DNA of 64,000 nucleotides, from NCBI GenBank assembly GCA_016432485.1, contig CP066691.1:740944-804943 (forward strand), read 5' to 3'. Below the pieces are notes generated by a model, which saw only the letters and a program-made list of their open reading frames with translations, searched no databases and had not been told where the DNA came from. This DNA comes from Candidatus Niyogibacteria bacterium. GTDB taxonomy: Bacteria > Patescibacteriota > Minisyncoccia > HO2-45-28. Every line of letters begins with the position of its first letter. Position 1 is the stretch's first letter. Made by a program: the position numbers and the translations under genes. This document shows, piece by piece, positions 8,895-54,947 of the stretch.

Positions 8895-9395
8895 ATAAAT
8901 AAAGTTTTGGTAGTATTATGATATATGAGAATTTTATCTCTAATGTAATACCACCAAATAAAATGAATTTAATCAATAAAAATTCGAAAAGCCCGCTTCT
9001 GGCCTTACTGAATTCAAAACGGCTTGAAATTTCCCCGAAAAACGGCTGGCGAGCCCGCGTAGCGGGCGAGCCAATGACTTCATTTCCTAACTGGCGGGGA
9101 CGATGTCCGCAACTTTGAACCGGTGGTATCCCGCAAAACCATTAGTTTTGCTCGTACGGATAAAATTATATGCAAACTGCGACGAATATACAAAGAAAAT
9201 CCTGCCTCTTTTGATATTCCTATTTTTGCCCAAAAACAGTATTAAACACCCTCTCCACTTCTTTGCCAGACAGCTTTGAGCCCGCAAGACGAGTTGATGC
9301 GCCTGTGGAGGTTATCAGAGTGACACGACGAAGTTCCGCCAATCTTTCTGGTGAAATACCAGAAAGCTTTTTGATAGATTTAGGATTTTTCATGT

Positions 9396-47406: not shown

Positions 47407-48315
47407 ATGCTGATTATACGTTTTAGAAAAATTTTATACGCGTTTTCAGCAGTCGTTTTGGCGATAAGCTTATTCGGTATTTTAGCTTTTGGATTCAGGT
47501 CCGGAGTCGATTTTTCCGGCGGGTCTATTTTAGAAGTGGAGTTTTTGGAAGAGCGCCCCGATATTTCTTTTTTGGAGGCGGATATATCGGCGCTGAATTT
47601 GGCGGCATTCAGAATTCAGCCTACCGGCGACAAGGGTTTAATCATAAGATTCGGCGATACTTCAAACGAAAGCCGCGAAATTCTGCTACAAACTTTATCC
47701 GCGGGCAAAGATCCCGCGTCGGTTTTGACTGAACGCAGGTTTGACGCCGTGGGTCCGGCCATAGGTTCTGAACTAAGAAAAAACGCCGTTATTTCAATAA
47801 TTCTGGTGATAATTTTAATTCTTGGTTTTGTTAGCTGGGCATTTCGTCATGTTTCAAAACCTGTGGCCAGCTGGAAGTACGGGATGGTGGCGATTATCGC
47901 TTTAGCGCATGACATAGCAGTGCCGGCCGGACTTTTCGCGTATCTCGGGCGTTTTTACGGGGCTGAAGTTGATGCGCTTTTCGTAACCGCGCTTTTGACC
48001 ATCCTGGGTTTTTCCGTGCACGATACCATAGTGGTTTTTGACCGCATACGCGAAAACCTCCGCAAAGCCGAAGGCCGCGGAGAATTTGAAGATATTGTCG
48101 GAAAAAGTTTAAACGAGACATTCGGCCGGTCTTTGGCTACATCGTTCGCGCTGTTTTTGGTTTTGTTCTCTCTTTTTTGGCTCGGGGCCGGAGCCACCCG
48201 TTATTTTGCTCTGACTTTGCTGGTCGGAGTTGTTGCCGGCACTTATTCTTCAATATGCCTCGCCAGCCCCCTTTTAGTCACGTGGCATAAATTCTCCGGC
48301 AAGAAAAATATTTGA
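47407..48315 (+). CDS. secF: protein translocase subunit SecF
   Basis: 302 aa, 6 TM, canonical secDF arrangement. Confidence 0.85.
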   Translation: MLIIRFRKILYAFSAVVLAISLFGILAFGFRSGVDFSGGSILEVEFLEERPDISFLEADISALNLAAFRIQPTGDKGLIIRFGDTSNESREILLQTLSAGKDPASVLTERRFDAVGPAIGSELRKNAVISIILVIILILGFVSWAFRHVSKPVASWKYGMVAIIALAHDIAVPAGLFAYLGRFYGAEVDALFVTALLTILGFSVHDTIVVFDRIRENLRKAEGRGEFEDIVGKSLNETFGRSLATSFALFLVLFSLFWLGAGATRYFALTLLVGVVAGTYSSICLASPLLVTWHKFSGKKNI

Positions 48316-48360
48316 CAAGGGCCTTTTAAGGGTTTTCTATTAAGTTAGAGATTTTTAACT

Positions 48361-49278
48361 TTGGAGGACGCTGCTTTGCTCTTCTACGCCGGGCTTTCGG
48401 TTTTGGTTTTGGCGGGTCTTGCGGTTTGGCGCGGAATTTATCTGATAAACAAATTCACCTTTCGCGATCTCAAAAAGCTTTTTTTGAAAATAGAGGAATA
48501 CGATAAAGAAGGCATCGGCGTTTTAATTAATGTCGCCGCCGAAAATTGCCGCAGCGAAAAAGAAGCCGGCTTTTTACTGAGGTCTTACTTTTTGATTTTA
48601 AGTATTCTGAACGGCTCGGGAGGGATGAAAAACGGCCATATAAGCGTTAAACCCTCGTCCTTTGTTTTATCAGGATGGCCCGCAGAAAAGAAAAAGGAAA
48701 AATTTGAAGCCGCGCTTTCTCAGCTTGCCGATTTTGCCGGAAAAAGAAATCGCAGGGTGTGGCTGGATGAGGAACGTTCAGCCGATGAAGAATGGGTTGA
48801 ACCGGTTAAGCGCGCTCTGGTCTGCGATAGGGGTATAACCAATCTGTCTTGGCGAATCAGATGTTACCGCAGGGACGCTTTCCGGCGCATCACAGAATAT
48901 GTTAATTGGCATAAGCAAGGAGCCAGTTTCAGCATCGGACTTTGCCGGGGCGCCTATCCCGAAGACGGGGAATTGGATGAAAATGAAACTGCCGAAAATA
49001 TTTTAAGATGCGCCCGACTTTTGGCTGATAATTCAATTGATTGCGTCATCGCTTCACATACGGCAATTAAACCGATTACAAACGCGAAAAGCGGAACTTT
49101 TTCACTGCACATGCTGCATGGCCGAGAAGAAGTTGATACGGCATTGAAATCCATTTTAGTTAAAGAATTGGCAAAAAGTCGGGGGGTCTACATGATTTAC
49201 GGAAGAAGTTTACGTTCCCTTCTGCCATATGTTTTGCGCCGTTTACTGGAAAAGCCGGCCCTTTTTTGGACCCAGTAG
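48361..49278 (+). CDS. proline dehydrogenase family protein (PRODH-like)
   Basis: C-terminal YMIYGRSLRSLLPYVLRRLLEKP resembles the PRODH YxPYG...RRLxExP tail; GLCRGAY. Confidence 0.45.
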   Translation: MEDAALLFYAGLSVLVLAGLAVWRGIYLINKFTFRDLKKLFLKIEEYDKEGIGVLINVAAENCRSEKEAGFLLRSYFLILSILNGSGGMKNGHISVKPSSFVLSGWPAEKKKEKFEAALSQLADFAGKRNRRVWLDEERSADEEWVEPVKRALVCDRGITNLSWRIRCYRRDAFRRITEYVNWHKQGASFSIGLCRGAYPEDGELDENETAENILRCARLLADNSIDCVIASHTAIKPITNAKSGTFSLHMLHGREEVDTALKSILVKELAKSRGVYMIYGRSLRSLLPYVLRRLLEKPALFWTQ

Positions 49279-49365
49279 TGAAAAATGGCATAGTGAGTCG
49301 CGGCATCTAAATAAAGATTATGATACACAGCCGCAATGCCATTTTCTACTAACGGGGTGGGGGGC

Positions 49366-49394
49366 TTGACATATAAGAGGCGTGATGCTATAAT
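49366..49394 (+). promoter_or_regulatory. consensus sigma-70 promoter P3: TTGACA-17-TATAAT
   Basis: exact hexamers; 12-bp inverted repeat gaaaaatggcat/atgccattttc just upstream. Confidence 0.6.
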
Positions 49395-49449
49395 ACAAGT
49401 ATTGAAAAGAGTGGAGTTTCGTAACCCATTCCAACAACAAGGAGGAAAG

Positions 49450-49689
49450 ATGGGAAAATCAATATCGTTGTTTGTGACAGAAGGGACGGAAGACGGCCTT
49501 GGAAAGCATTCTGCCGACGAAAGCGGAGAAACGCCCCTCGCTCGCGGGATCGGGTTCAAGCCCCCGGGCTACACGGGGGGAAGATTGTTTCGTCCGGGAC
49601 CTGGAGGCACGGTGGAGCCGGTTTCCGATCGGTCCCCCAAGTCCGAGCGAACCGTTTCGCGAAGGATCACGACCCCGTCCTTCAAGTAG
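49450..49689 (+). CDS. small Gly/Pro-rich hypothetical protein O3 (79 aa), ~60% GC
   Basis: SD aaggagga 6 nt before ATG 49450 (the longer 49336 ORF would start upstream of the promoter). Confidence 0.5.
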   Translation: MGKSISLFVTEGTEDGLGKHSADESGETPLARGIGFKPPGYTGGRLFRPGPGGTVEPVSDRSPKSERTVSRRITTPSFK

Positions 49690-49708
49690 GGCGCGGTCAC
49701 GGTGAAGT

Positions 49709-49742
49709 GCCCCCCGAGAAGTTTTCGGGGGGCGCGTTTTTT
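49709..49742 (+). terminator. intrinsic terminator (ccccccgagaagttttcgggggg + T-run)
   Basis: perfect stem-loop then gcgcgtttttt. Confidence 0.7.
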
Positions 49743-49835
49743 AAATTTATAATTTATAAAGGGGGAATATTATTTTTGATTTGACCCCTTGACTTGACAG
49801 AAAAATCGCTGTAAGCTAGGATTGAATTAAATATT

Positions 49836-50861
49836 ATGGTCAAGACCGGTAATAATTTTGAGGATTTATCAAAGTCAATGCTAAAGGAGCTGTCGGGCAG
49901 AGCGCGCGATGTTATTGAGCGTCGTTTCGGCATAGGCAGCCGTTCCAAAAAGCAGACCTTAGAATCAATAGGCGGGCTCTATAAAATAACCCGCGAGCGC
50001 GTTAGACAAATTGAAGCCGCGGCTATCGGTAAAATTAGAAATTCCGAGGTCTTTTCCGCTTCCAAAGAACTTTTTGCCGATTTGGAAAAAGAGTTTAACC
50101 TTAGGGATAAGGTATGGCGTGAAGACGAAGTTCTGGCTCATTTTGCCGGCAATGATTCCGGGAAGAATTATGTTTACTTTTTCTTATCGCTGGGACGCCC
50201 TTTTGAAAGGATTGGGGCGGATAATGAATTTTATCACCGCTGGACAAATGACGCGGCGGGGGTTGCCGAAGTTGAGAAAACTATAAAAAATTTTTGCAGA
50301 GGATTAGGAGAGGAGCCTTTGAATCGCGAGGAGATAGCTGATAAATTCAAAAAACATGTCGAATCGGATTTGAGCCGGAAGATTTCAGCTGATGCTGTTT
50401 TTTCATGGCTCGGCGTGTCAAAAAATATAAATTCAAACAATTTTGGCGAGTGGGGGCTCACAAGTTCTCCTTTGGTCAAGCCTTCGGGCATGCGCGATTT
50501 CGCTTATTTGGTTTTAAGAAAGCATGGTTCCCCTTTGCATTTTCGCGAAGTGGCTTCGCGCATTGAAGGCCTGGCCAATAAAAGAGCCCATGTCCAGACG
50601 GTTCATAATGAGCTGATTAAAGACAGACGTTTTGTGCTTGTCGGCCGCGGGCTTTACGCGCTTGCCAGCTGGGGCTATCAGCCCGGAACCGTAAAGGACA
50701 TCATTAAATCCATTTTGGAAAAACAGGGTCCGTCTTCAAAGGAGGAGCTGGTTAAATTGGTAAAGCAAGAGAGGCACGTTAAAGACAATACCATTTTCAT
50801 AAATCTTCAAAACAAGGCTCGCTTCAAAAGACTTCCCGACGGGCGGTTTCATGTGGCATAA
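49836..50861 (+). CDS. sigma-70 region-4 domain protein (not a complete sigma factor)
   Basis: ESIGGLYKITRERVRQIEAAAIGKIRN is a region-4 HTH; no region 2. Confidence 0.6.
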   Translation: MVKTGNNFEDLSKSMLKELSGRARDVIERRFGIGSRSKKQTLESIGGLYKITRERVRQIEAAAIGKIRNSEVFSASKELFADLEKEFNLRDKVWREDEVLAHFAGNDSGKNYVYFFLSLGRPFERIGADNEFYHRWTNDAAGVAEVEKTIKNFCRGLGEEPLNREEIADKFKKHVESDLSRKISADAVFSWLGVSKNINSNNFGEWGLTSSPLVKPSGMRDFAYLVLRKHGSPLHFREVASRIEGLANKRAHVQTVHNELIKDRRFVLVGRGLYALASWGYQPGTVKDIIKSILEKQGPSSKEELVKLVKQERHVKDNTIFINLQNKARFKRLPDGRFHVA

Positions 50862-52748: not shown

Positions 52749-54233
52749 GTGGCACGAGAAGGAAAAATCCAGATAATAAAATATGCTCCGCCGCCGCCGG
52801 AACTTCCGGTCTATAAGCAAGTTGACCCGAAAGAGGCCGTTTTTTTCGGACGCACCAATTACGTAGCCGGACTTGAGGAAAAGCGGTTCATATTCGGTAT
52901 CAAGCGAAGAGACCGCCGGCGCCATATGTATATAATCGGAAAATCGGGCGTCGGAAAAAGCAAGCTTTTGGAATTGATGTTAAGGCAGGATATTCAATAC
53001 GGCCATGGCGTTTGCTTGATTGATCCGCATGGAGACGTCATAGAAGAGGTCTTAAAATTTATTCCTGAAGAGCGCGTTAGAGACACCATTTTAGTTGATC
53101 CGTCCGATACTGCCTGGCCGATTTCTTTTAATCCGCTACAGAATATAAATCCGGAATTGAAACATCAGGTGGCTCAAGGCCTGATTGAAGTTATGGAAAA
53201 ACAATTCGGCGCGAATTGGACCCCCAGGCTTGAGCACGTTTTTCGTTTTACTGTTCTTGCTCTTCTTGATTTTCCAATGGCGACTATGCGCGGAATGATT
53301 TCAATGCTCGTGGATCGTAAATACCGTCAAAAGGTTGTTGAGTATATTGAAGACGAAATGGTCAAGCGTTTTTGGGCGATTGAATTTGCCGATTGGTCCG
53401 AAAAATTTGATACCGAAGCGATCATTCCGCTAGTCAATAAACTCGGCCAGTTTTTGGCCAATCCTTATCTGCGCTACATTTTTGGTCAGCGCGAAAATAA
53501 AGTTGACCTTGAGCGCGCGATGAACGAGAAAAAAATTCTTTTAATCAATCTTTCAAGAGGAAGGCTTGGAGAGGAAAATTCAAGTTTTTTGGGTTCAATG
53601 TTTATCACTAAAATAAAGCAAGCCGGAATGGCGCGCGCGTCAATGTCCGAGGAAGATCGCGAAGATTTTTATCTATACGTAGATGAGTTTCATAATTTGG
53701 TTACGGCCACATTTGTTAACATTTTTTCCGAAGCCAGAAAATACGGAGTTTCTTTGACGGTGGCCCATCAGTTTTTCGGCCAGCTTATTCAGCATGTTCG
53801 CGAATCAGTAATCGGTAATGTCGGCACTATGGTTGTTTTCAGAGTCGGCGGTGACGACGCGGCGAAGCTGGAAGCGGAGATGACGCCGGTATTCAAAGCA
53901 AAAGATATGGTTAATCTCGGCACTCAGCAATTTTACATAAAAATGACTATTGACGGCGACACCTATGACCCGTTTTCCGCCGAAACTTTGAAAGTTTTAC
54001 CGCCGGTCCACAAGTCTTTCAAAGACGAAATAATTAAATTCAGCCGCGAGAATTATGCCGCTCCGGCCGAAGAAGTGAAAAGAAAAATTCTTGAAGAAGA
54101 AAACGAACTTTTGGGGCTTGCCTCCGCGCCCGGGAAAACACTCGGTGTTGAGACCTTAAAAACACCGGGTGTTGAGTGGGGCGCGGTCAAAGAATCCGCT
54201 CTTCCCGATTCACCTCCCGAACCGATAGTATAA
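52749..54233 (+). CDS. soluble TraD/TrwB/VirD4-like (AAA_10/DUF87-type) P-loop ATPase
   Basis: HMYIIGKSGVGKSKL Walker A, YLYVDEFHN Walker B, AHQ, GNVGTMVVFRV; no TM segments. Confidence 0.6.
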   Translation: MAREGKIQIIKYAPPPPELPVYKQVDPKEAVFFGRTNYVAGLEEKRFIFGIKRRDRRRHMYIIGKSGVGKSKLLELMLRQDIQYGHGVCLIDPHGDVIEEVLKFIPEERVRDTILVDPSDTAWPISFNPLQNINPELKHQVAQGLIEVMEKQFGANWTPRLEHVFRFTVLALLDFPMATMRGMISMLVDRKYRQKVVEYIEDEMVKRFWAIEFADWSEKFDTEAIIPLVNKLGQFLANPYLRYIFGQRENKVDLERAMNEKKILLINLSRGRLGEENSSFLGSMFITKIKQAGMARASMSEEDREDFYLYVDEFHNLVTATFVNIFSEARKYGVSLTVAHQFFGQLIQHVRESVIGNVGTMVVFRVGGDDAAKLEAEMTPVFKAKDMVNLGTQQFYIKMTIDGDTYDPFSAETLKVLPPVHKSFKDEIIKFSRENYAAPAEEVKRKILEEENELLGLASAPGKTLGVETLKTPGVEWGAVKESALPDSPPEPIV

Positions 54234-54344
54234 TAAATTTCCCTCTGTTCAATATGGGTAGATTGAACATTAGAGCTAAAAATCCTTATTTTAAGCCATT
54301 TTTTAGCTTTTTGGTGTTGCGAAGCTATTGAACCATTGCAAGAG

Positions 54345-54372
54345 CTTGACGAGATGCGGTGAGGTGGTATGA
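54345..54372 (+). promoter_or_regulatory. sigma-70 promoter P4: TTGACG-16-TATGAT, preceded by 18-nt motif aagctattgaaccattgc shared with P1
   Basis: near-consensus hexamers; same motif-to--35 spacing as the ancestral form inferred for P1. Confidence 0.55.
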
Positions 54373-54435
54373 TGGCAACGGTTGGGACACGGTGTCCCCG
54401 CACATTAAACTATTTTTGAGAAAAGAGGAGGAACG

Positions 54436-54858
54436 ATGGACCTGGAAAAGCTGGAAGAAGTTCTTGATCAAATTTTGGAAGCGATAGGGAATGGCGCAAA
54501 CGAAGACGTAGTGAGGGATCTGTTTGATGTCCTCTATGAAGGCGTGGTTTCAGAATATCGTCCTGTTCTGAAGGTTCTCCCGCATGTGGCTGATAAGGTT
54601 GCTGCTGATTTGGTTCCCATCATACAAGTTTTTGTCAGAATATTTAATGCTGTAGAATCAGACAAAACTTTGCAGAAGGAACTCGCTGCATATAAAAACG
54701 ACCGCGCAAAGAAGCGTTTTGCCGCTCTTAAGATTTATCAGAAAGCCGGATTTACTCGTCATGAAGCAATGCAGTTGGTATTACAAGACATTGCTAATTT
54801 TAAAGCTCTGCGACAGGAGGTATCAAAGATAAAAGGACCCACCTCCTCAAAGAAGTAG
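54436..54858 (+). CDS. hypothetical protein O4 (140 aa, all-helical prediction)
   Basis: SD gaggagga before ATG; own promoter and terminator; splits two paralogous ATPase genes. Confidence 0.55.
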   Translation: MDLEKLEEVLDQILEAIGNGANEDVVRDLFDVLYEGVVSEYRPVLKVLPHVADKVAADLVPIIQVFVRIFNAVESDKTLQKELAAYKNDRAKKRFAALKIYQKAGFTRHEAMQLVLQDIANFKALRQEVSKIKGPTSSKK

Positions 54859-54875
54859 AGAGGAAAAATTTTATT

Positions 54876-54907
54876 GCCCAACCTTTTTGGATTGGGCGAT
54901 TTTGTTT
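54876..54907 (+). terminator. intrinsic terminator (gcccaaccttttt ggattgggc + T-run)
   Basis: stem-loop followed by gattttgttt. Confidence 0.65.
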
Positions 54908-54947
54908 GGCATACAAATTTATATATAAATGTGGCATAATATAATTA

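Follow-up and report, generated by a model that had tools for sequence, protein, structure and literature searches.

The genomes of the CPR bacteria (Patescibacteria) are small and hold many genes without known function, and the locus considered here raises the question of what a conspicuous expression unit, built around a short orphan reading frame, is doing in one of them. It lies in a MAG of Candidatus Niyogibacteria (Patescibacteria/CPR), within a stretch of 64,000 nucleotides that is referred to below as the window. The initial annotation of this stretch took the unit for a cassette of foreign composition, of a kind typical of phage morons, small toxins or anti-defence peptides. Alternatively its product may be an RNA, it may be a device that acts on the adjacent gene, or it may be a resident gene for a small protein.

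The transcription unit and its surroundings

The neighbourhood is as it was first described, with secD, secF and a Pro_dh-like gene (Pfam E = 1e-12 for Pro_dh) on the 5' side and, on the 3' side, a sigma70_r4/HARE-HTH gene, referred to below as the anchor gene, followed by DUF8128 and then by a TrwB/VirD4-like ATPase. The view of the unit as insulated is borne out, since it has a promoter, Shine-Dalgarno (SD) sequence, ORF and terminator of its own (Table 1). The exact TTGACA-17-TATAAT promoter, the SD (given initially as aaggagga) and the Gly/Pro/Arg-rich ORF of 79 aa and about 60% GC were all recovered, and two further features had to be revised. The terminator, which had been called perfect and credited with a run of nine T residues, is indeed a strong one, with a 13-bp stem (9 of the pairs being GC) and a 3-nt loop, but its T-run is six residues long. 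A repeat does exist where an inverted repeat of 12 bp had been reported, but it consists of a 10-bp perfect core (aaaatggcat/atgccatttt) within the imperfectly complementary arms of a longer hairpin, the 44-nt loop of which contains an inner GCGGC/GCCGC stem. This long hairpin folds with an MFE of -29.5 kcal/mol (z = -2.2), overlaps the stop codon of the Pro_dh-like gene, for which it may act as a terminator or stabilise the 3' end. It is restricted to the window and its close relative L017, in which it is 100% identical; L006, L007 and the remaining copies lack it, and it is outside the conserved unit.

Table 1. Features of the unit and of the hairpin that precedes it (positions are those of the window)
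Feature	Position	Strand	Details
Imperfect long hairpin	49271-49356	+	arms 49271-49291 and 49336-49356, 21 nt each, 81% complementary
Perfect sigma-70-type promoter, TTGACA-17-TATAAT with TG extension	49366-49394	+	12/12 match
5' leader	49401-49449	+	start inferred, about 7 nt past the -10 box
Shine-Dalgarno sequence AGGAGGA	49440-49446	+	4 nt 5' of the ATG at 49450
79-codon ORF, MGKSISLFVTEGTEDGLGKHSADESGETPLARGIGFKPPGYTGGRLFRPGPGGTVEPVSDRSPKSERTVSRRITTPSFK	49450-49689	+	60% GC; ATG start
Intrinsic terminator	49707-49742	+	stem-loop 49707-49735, then G, then T6 (49737-49742)

Six promoter-like sites were found in the region scanned (48500-50500) against 2.5 expected, that of the unit being the sole perfect one, and just two others in the 64 kb as a whole are perfect. 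The only promoter-like match on the minus strand of the same region is a weak 9/12 site (49348-49320), situated upstream of the ORF and pointing away from it. The leader begins with AUUGAAA, which is kept across the family of related units described below, and contains a local hairpin at 49409-49431.

The composition of the unit is atypical for the genome, as had been stated. A GC island at 49459-49751, among a handful of such islands in the window, reaches 0.67 at its peak, the mean of the window being 0.445, and the GC3 of the ORF is 0.65 (z = +4.6) compared with 0.457 +/- 0.042 for ordinary genes of the window. GC3 ranges from 0.57 to 0.80 in every copy of the family, and from 0.40 to 0.53 in NusG, L11 and the neighbouring genes. 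Expression-linked codon bias was rejected on the strength of the latter figures, and the high GC3 of all the relatives, taken together with the values for NusG and L11, implies that the deviation would stem neither from amino-acid composition nor from expression-linked bias nor from recent import.

The unit had also been likened in layout to two cassettes on the pheS side of the window, and all three do have a perfect promoter and a GC3-outlier ORF. The three perfect 12/12 promoters of the window drive exactly its three GC3 outliers, namely O1 (32114-32788), O2 (33230-33805) and the present ORF. No nucleotide similarity of the three cassettes to one another was found in the 64-kb window, and a Trp-rich C-terminus which O1 and O2 seemed by eye to share proved to be a wrong impression, the two being unrelated as proteins. 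A 47-nt direct repeat lies on either side of the O1 cassette. Perfect promoters are not linked to GC3-rich ORFs in Parcubacteria at large, since only the present family shows the association in 1.35 Mb of loci. It is doubtful that the unit is one of a class of high-output expression slots, three of them in this window alone, in which a near-invariant chassis of perfect sigma-70 promoter, leader, strong SD and strong terminator would host fast-exchanged or rewritten GC3-rich orphan ORFs and a non-native codon composition would be actively maintained for some function of the products, DNA or RNA at a symbiont-host interface. If that were true, the products of such slots might be, for example, effectors, or the cassettes might be adapted to expression in a partner cell of higher GC content.

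Copies of the unit in related genomes

Relatives were found by anchoring on the downstream sigma-r4/HARE-HTH gene, which gave some 160 Parcubacteria loci, to which the contigs of the closest homologs were added. The anchor gene directly follows secF in most Parcubacteria. In a Niyogibacteria-like clade (anchor identity of 65% or more) there is a gap of 340-560 nt before the anchor gene that holds the same kind of unit, directly upstream of that gene and co-oriented with it in about 10 lineages. The bearers form one clade when the anchor proteins are placed in a crude NJ tree, and dS of the anchor gene between bearer lineages is greater than 1. Within the bearer clade a single replacement was encountered, in L094, where the slot is filled by a different, AT-rich gene of 171 aa; in the outgroups the slot is occupied by a HAD hydrolase (L010, L011, L097) or a TsaC-like gene, or, in the more distant Parcubacteria, by nothing.

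The signals around the ORF have changed little. The -35 element TTGACA and the 17-nt spacer occur in 11/11 copies, and the promoter matches the consensus at 12/12 positions in seven of these, at 11/12 in two and at 10/12 in two. The family leaders are 47-61 nt long. An SD, a start codon and an ORF (53-80 codons, 52-66% GC) are present in all 11 copies, the SD being of the GGAGG type in most of them and weaker in L017 (GGGAG) and L102 (AAGGGGG). The subtypes do not cleanly follow the anchor tree, and the B-type proteins look modular. Shared position and shared expression signals argue for a common origin of the ORFs of the slot, though the ORFs might not all be homologous.

The same position throughout one clade, together with a high GC3 kept in all copies, indicates that the unit is an old, vertically inherited resident that has undergone one replacement, and no recent import. 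The slot would have arisen once in the Niyogibacteria-like clade, directly 5' of the sigma70-r4/HARE-HTH gene, a proposal that shares the reasonable confidence placed in the best explanation as a whole, which is given below.

The proposal of a recently acquired and variably present foreign cassette, be it a phage moron, a small toxin or an anti-defence gene, could call on the strong promoter and terminator that the unit owns, its atypical composition, its orphan and fast-evolving protein and the HTH gene next to it; on the other genes that hold the slot in some relatives (L094, and L010, L011 and L097 with their HAD hydrolase); and on the 47-nt direct repeat that flanks the sister cassette O1. 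Against these stand the constancy of position in about 10 lineages with an anchor dS > 1 and the retention of high GC3 in all of them, and the proposal is largely refuted by synteny. Comparison of synteny had been recommended at the outset, a fixed position in all relatives and a conserved protein of known function being the outcome that would speak against mobility; the identical position was found in the relatives of the clade, but the encoded protein is not one of known function. A search of viral and plasmid collections, which had likewise been suggested, gave no match in phages (50,697 records), plasmids or IMG/VR, and neither PHROGs nor PADLOC contained a counterpart, PADLOC yielding no family at E <= 0.1 when queried with the window ORF and with four of its relatives. 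There is no phage context, the neighbours being secD, secF, Pro_dh and a core Parcubacteria sigma-like gene, and no direct repeats of note flank the window unit. A type I or membrane-active toxin was rejected, the protein being hydrophilic (GRAVY -0.70) and no antisense promoter being found over the ORF. An Acr with an Aca partner was also rejected, as the ORF is separated by a strong terminator and a further, conserved promoter from the HTH gene, which is moreover a core Parcubacteria gene present in roughly 160 loci, unlike an Aca-type partner. Like a phage moron, the window unit is an autonomous promoter-ORF-terminator module of atypical composition set between unrelated genes; unlike one, it does not lie in a prophage, has no viral relatives, is conserved in position and appears to be vertically inherited. 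A foreign cassette is accordingly regarded as highly improbable.

The constant association with the anchor gene invites another explanation, that the unit is a regulatory or insulating device for the sigma-like gene, such that transcription or terminator read-through, or a translated leader, would act on the promoter of that gene at 49794-49822 and the peptide itself would be unimportant. It would fit with this that the unit always adjoins the anchor gene and is co-oriented with it, at a distance of 90-150 nt upstream of its conserved TTGACTTGACA...TAAGCT promoter, and that the signals are conserved much more than the ORF. The terminators of the family are, however, all very strong (-24 to -33 kcal/mol). 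The anchor gene is served by a conserved promoter of its own and works without the unit in most Parcubacteria, and dN/dS values below 1, presented in the following section, suggest that the sequence of the peptide matters. A device of this kind is therefore thought to be quite unlikely.

Protein or RNA as the product

The coding status of the ORF was judged chiefly by comparison within the family. In the B subtype, which is the best sampled (L006, L007, L085, L089, L093), the ORF frame had the top cross-lineage BLOSUM score in 7 of the 10 pairs and third codon positions varied most. Over the 36 pairs formed by nine members of the family, the ORF frame scored 1656 and the other five frames 1203-1402. 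The dN/dS of the ORF lay between 0.17 and 0.59. The same pairs of genomes gave 0.09-0.23 for the anchor gene next to it, and the dN of the ORF was 3-5 times that of the anchor gene. By this measure the body of the ORF is under purifying selection in the relatives while evolving 3-5 times faster than its neighbour, and a dN/dS below 1 implies that the peptide sequence matters.

The window ORF has a codon-usage score of +0.08 per codon, compared with +0.12 to +0.43 for real genes. It went undetected with profiles built without the window copy and L017, only L096 being marginal (E = 0.058, top of 1190 peptides), and was missed by the B- and C-type profiles; the L017 ORF is clearly related to it. 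Motifs picked out by eye as common to the window protein and the B and C types (GFK, YTG, RRI[VT]TP and a C-terminal P-x-F/Y) had no statistical support. Gene callers call the window ORF on Logan contigs; in the relatives they choose the opposite strand in L089-L091 and call nothing in L093 and L095, and the ORF is absent from the NCBI annotation of the genome record. Taken as a whole, the comparisons of sequence lead to the conclusion that small proteins are the products of the slot, and the window ORF is probably one of them.

The only close relative of the window type is L017, a scaffolded MAG, in which the promoter, the inverted repeat, the terminator and the downstream spacer are 100% identical to those of the window and the body is 42-67% identical. 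The L017 ORF has a GTG start and encodes 74 aa, with the same start site and stop as in the window, net in-frame indels and 35% nucleotide divergence; in a neutral simulation the ORF stayed open in 15% of trials when substitutions alone were allowed and in 4% when random indels were included. In the nucleotide alignment of the two copies the substitutions are evenly spread over the codon positions (19/28/29), and the ORF-frame protein score of 122-128 is barely above those of two other frames (115-121). A dN/dS of 0.43 was obtained in the protein-guided alignment only, with a dS of about 1 for the body, and comparison of the RNA structures showed double changes in 5 of 78 pairs. Flanks that are identical to those of L017 on either side of a body with such a dS imply allele replacement, which would have come about by homologous recombination with the conserved signals serving as anchors. 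That the body might be a DGR target was considered and rejected, A being involved in 21-23 of the 77 differences (no bias), indels being present and no second copy of the body being found in the 64-kb window.

In a genome that leans towards AT, a GC-rich unit running from promoter to terminator around an ORF of low complexity is what one would classically expect of a structured RNA. At gathering scores Rfam identified only six tRNAs in the whole window, and at E <= 10 the interval 49250-49800 gave only terminator-driven noise, with a best score of 22.6 bits against a gathering score of 50; a tmRNA was not found with ARAGORN. The whole transcript folds better than shuffled sequences (z = -3.3), because of the terminator and the pairing of the A-rich leader with the T-tail, and the z for the body of the window CDS is +0.6. 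The fold energy of the mRNA is -0.35 to -0.43 kcal/mol per nt. RNAalifold, applied to six relatives, found only the terminator hairpin to be conserved and returned a covariation term of +0.75, which gives no support for structure. A structured ncRNA was accordingly rejected, there being no Rfam match, no better folding of the ORF body than of shuffles and no conserved element other than the terminator.

A broader form of the same idea is that the product is an abundant, GC-rich sRNA of about 340 nt, or a dual-function RNA, with a conserved 5' end (AUUGAAA..., and UUUUCCGCC in the relatives), and that the ORF is incidental or secondary. The promoter, the start of the leader and the terminator are indeed far better conserved than the ORF, GC3 is at 0.57-0.80 in all copies beyond what amino-acid composition would give, and the bodies of the family have z values below 0 in 9 of 10 cases, with a mean of about -1.6 against 0 +/- 1.2 in controls. 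Moreover, at 65% GC long ORFs arise in several frames, the gene callers are inconsistent in the five relatives already named (L089-L091, L093, L095) and the codon-position pattern between the window and L017 is flat. The RNA reading has to contend with the lack of an Rfam match even at E <= 10, with the z of +0.6 for the window body and with an RNAalifold result that conserves no element but the terminator and has a positive covariation term. It has also to contend with an SD at the proper distance from a start codon in all copies and, in the better-sampled subfamily, with an ORF frame that is the best conserved and a dN/dS below 1. An RNA product is thus considered unlikely.

A motif in the leader of most of the relatives, UUUUCCGCC, can pair with the SD, GGAGGAAA, 8 of 9 positions being complementary, and the predicted MFE structures show the two paired. 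The window and L017 are without UUUUCCGCC and their SD is predicted to be mostly unpaired (0.77 and 0.68), and the predicted accessibility of the SD in the relatives (0.31-0.46) overlaps that of ordinary genes (0.30-0.80). Sequestration of the SD as a conserved switch was therefore dropped, accessibility overlapping the controls and the SD of the window being open, and the complementarity, real in most relatives, is best treated as a lead for the relatives and no feature of the window copy. The pairing of UUUUCCGCC with GGAGGAAA in the relatives is reminiscent of RNA thermometers and translational-control hairpins, compared here by structure only; the overlap with ordinary genes, the lack of the motif in the window and L017 and the lack of a match to any Rfam thermometer set the unit apart from them.

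Nature of the protein and comparison with known systems

The window protein contains 16% Gly, 10% Pro and 9% Arg, as against 7, 4 and 6% in ordinary proteins of the window, and is also rich in Ser and Thr. Hydrophobic residues make up 20% of it, its GRAVY is -0.70 and its pI is 9.7. The proteins of the family have GRAVY values from -0.24 to -1.21, are mostly basic (pI 9.6-10.7) and contain much Gly, Pro and Arg and few hydrophobic residues. AlphaFold2, run on a shallow alignment of three sequences, gave a pLDDT of 55, a pTM of 0.12 and no secondary structure, and the product is probably intrinsically disordered. A search with the single sequence against 5.8 billion clusters, an exhaustive HMMER scan of 1.84 billion representatives and a search with a family profile recovered nothing beyond the ORF itself or two known relatives. 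The protein had no match in Pfam, NCBIfam, PHROGs, PADLOC or the PDB, and a search of the literature found no description of the gene.

The best explanation, in which we place reasonable but incomplete confidence, is that the unit is an autonomous, monocistronic gene with a very strong promoter, encoding a small (79 aa), basic, hydrophilic and predicted disordered protein, and that it is situated in a slot that is conserved in the clade. As far as can be told from sequence, it is a real lineage-specific small-protein gene, vertically inherited and not a moron. The expression signals (-35 and -10 boxes, 17-nt spacer, leader of 47-61 nt, strong SD and terminator) are held nearly constant across the clade, and the coding body turns over rapidly through point change, in-frame indels and allele replacement by recombination, with purifying selection on the protein in the relatives. 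It may well be the case that the product is abundant and acts by its composition or by a few short linear motifs, and not by a fold, perhaps as a small protein of hydrophilin-like or adaptor type with a binding partner in the cell. One of two forces could keep GC3 high at the locus, either selection for an mRNA that is stable and rich in GC or, at a site prone to recombination, GC-biased gene conversion, the latter being a candidate cause because recombination would be frequent there.

A perfect consensus promoter kept throughout a clade suggests that the product is probably among the most abundant ones of these cells, and yet it is missing from annotation and from the family libraries. The gene gives searches of groundwater metatranscriptomes and metaproteomes something concrete to look for, and the tryptic peptides of the ORF product, as derived from its sequence, include HSADESGETPLAR, LFRPGPGGTVEPVSDR and GIGFKPPGYTGGR. 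The combination of frozen signals with a fast-changing, GC3-rich body is unusual and provides a natural case for the study of disordered small-protein evolution and of locally deviant base composition.

Two groups of known proteins invite comparison with a resident gene of this kind. Hydrophilins and small disordered stress proteins, which include the YciG-type KGG-repeat proteins of E. coli and LEA-like proteins, are small and Gly-rich. The window protein has the Gly content above 6% and the hydrophilicity by which hydrophilin/LEA-like stress proteins are recognised (16% and a GRAVY of -0.70), which is a likeness in composition only. It resembles the YciG-type and LEA-like proteins in being small, very hydrophilic and predicted to be disordered, with a composition that is conserved more than the sequence, and differs from them in being basic and rich in Pro and Arg and in having no KGG or LEA Pfam match. 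The other group consists of the lineage-specific small proteins that are missed by annotation, to which the unit is similar in having fewer than 100 codons with a promoter, SD and terminator of its own, and in being an orphan, fast-evolving and inconsistently called. It is unlike them in that its consensus promoter is unusually perfect and conserved, its GC3 lies far above the genomic norm throughout the clade and it occupies a conserved slot.

Occupancy of the slot upstream of the anchor gene

The slot, the site of the small-ORF unit upstream of the sigma-r4/HARE-HTH (anchor) gene, is occupied by a different gene in L094 (2175-3000), a single lineage nested within the sORF-bearing clade, that is, the Niyogibacteria-like lineages in which the unit precedes the anchor gene. 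The occupant is an AT-rich ORF (39% GC) of 171 aa with its own TTGACA promoter, a strong SD and a terminator. The promoter region of the anchor gene (window 49779-49835; TTGACTTGACA ... TAAGCTAG) is kept in the Niyogibacteria-like loci inspected, among them the two without the small ORF, L010 and L011. For the 5' end of the small-ORF unit, contigs from one population disagree: AT-rich sequence opens both L005 and L086, and the promoter and start codon present in L085 are thereby lost. The AT-rich start is probably an assembly-end artefact and the disagreement is a warning about gene calls at contig ends.

Sister cassettes on the pheS side

The two sister cassettes, O1 and O2, are each closed by a terminator and their ORFs have a third-position GC of 0.73 and 0.74, respectively, but there is no detectable relationship between them (E = 0.29). 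Searches for viral, PHROG and PADLOC relatives of O1 found none, and O2 had no match in PDB, plasmid, phage or IMG/VR searches.

Features of the sister cassettes and of a further promoter (window positions; a perfect promoter matches TTGACA/TATAAT at 12/12)
Feature	Position	Description
O1 cassette	31784-32935, direct repeats included	promoter, leader, ORF, terminator
Inverted repeat before the O1 promoter	31920-31984	perfect, 22 nt, ACCCACACACCCACTTTGCCAT / ATGGCAAAGTGGGTGTGTGGGT, arms 21 nt apart
O1 promoter	31984-32011	perfect
O1 leader		~100 nt, many hairpins
O1 ORF	32114-32788	224 aa, orphan; NCBI HYY55_04350, hypothetical
O2 cassette	33061-33850	promoter, leader, ORF, terminator
O2 promoter	33061-33089	perfect
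O2 leader		~140 nt
O2 ORF	33230-33805	191 aa, Trp-rich, orphan; NCBI HYY55_04355, hypothetical
11/12 promoter	36900-36960	TTGACC-16-TATAAT; interval includes the hairpin that follows

O1 lies between 47-nt direct repeats (31784-31830 and 32889-32935, 94% identical). The upstream gene (ORF 30683-31828) has the first copy as its 3' end, an arrangement that is the hallmark of a target-duplicating insertion. The inverted repeat ends right at the O1 promoter's -35 box and is a candidate operator or upstream terminator. Within about 12 nt of the 11/12 promoter comes a hairpin that resembles a terminator and carries a T-run (ccccctcgggggg tttttt); for the convergent gene 35894-36868 it could act as a bidirectional terminator, or a very short transcript could arise here.

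Differences from the related MAG L017

Comparison of window 47595-50380 with 3758-6557 of the relative L017, a scaffolded MAG that contains N-runs, gave a mosaic in which kilobase stretches of 100% identity are broken by patches of 40-75% (e.g. 48255-48414, 48535-48654, 49405-49700 and from 50092 onward). Either recombination of diverged lineages or strain-switching during co-assembly could have produced this pattern. L017 lacks both the gene for the TrwB/VirD4-like ATPase and the 140-aa ORF behind it (window 52749-54940); the genes that flank this pair in the window adjoin each other there (9028-9066). Close relatives thus differ in whether they carry the "DNA-transfer-like" gene.
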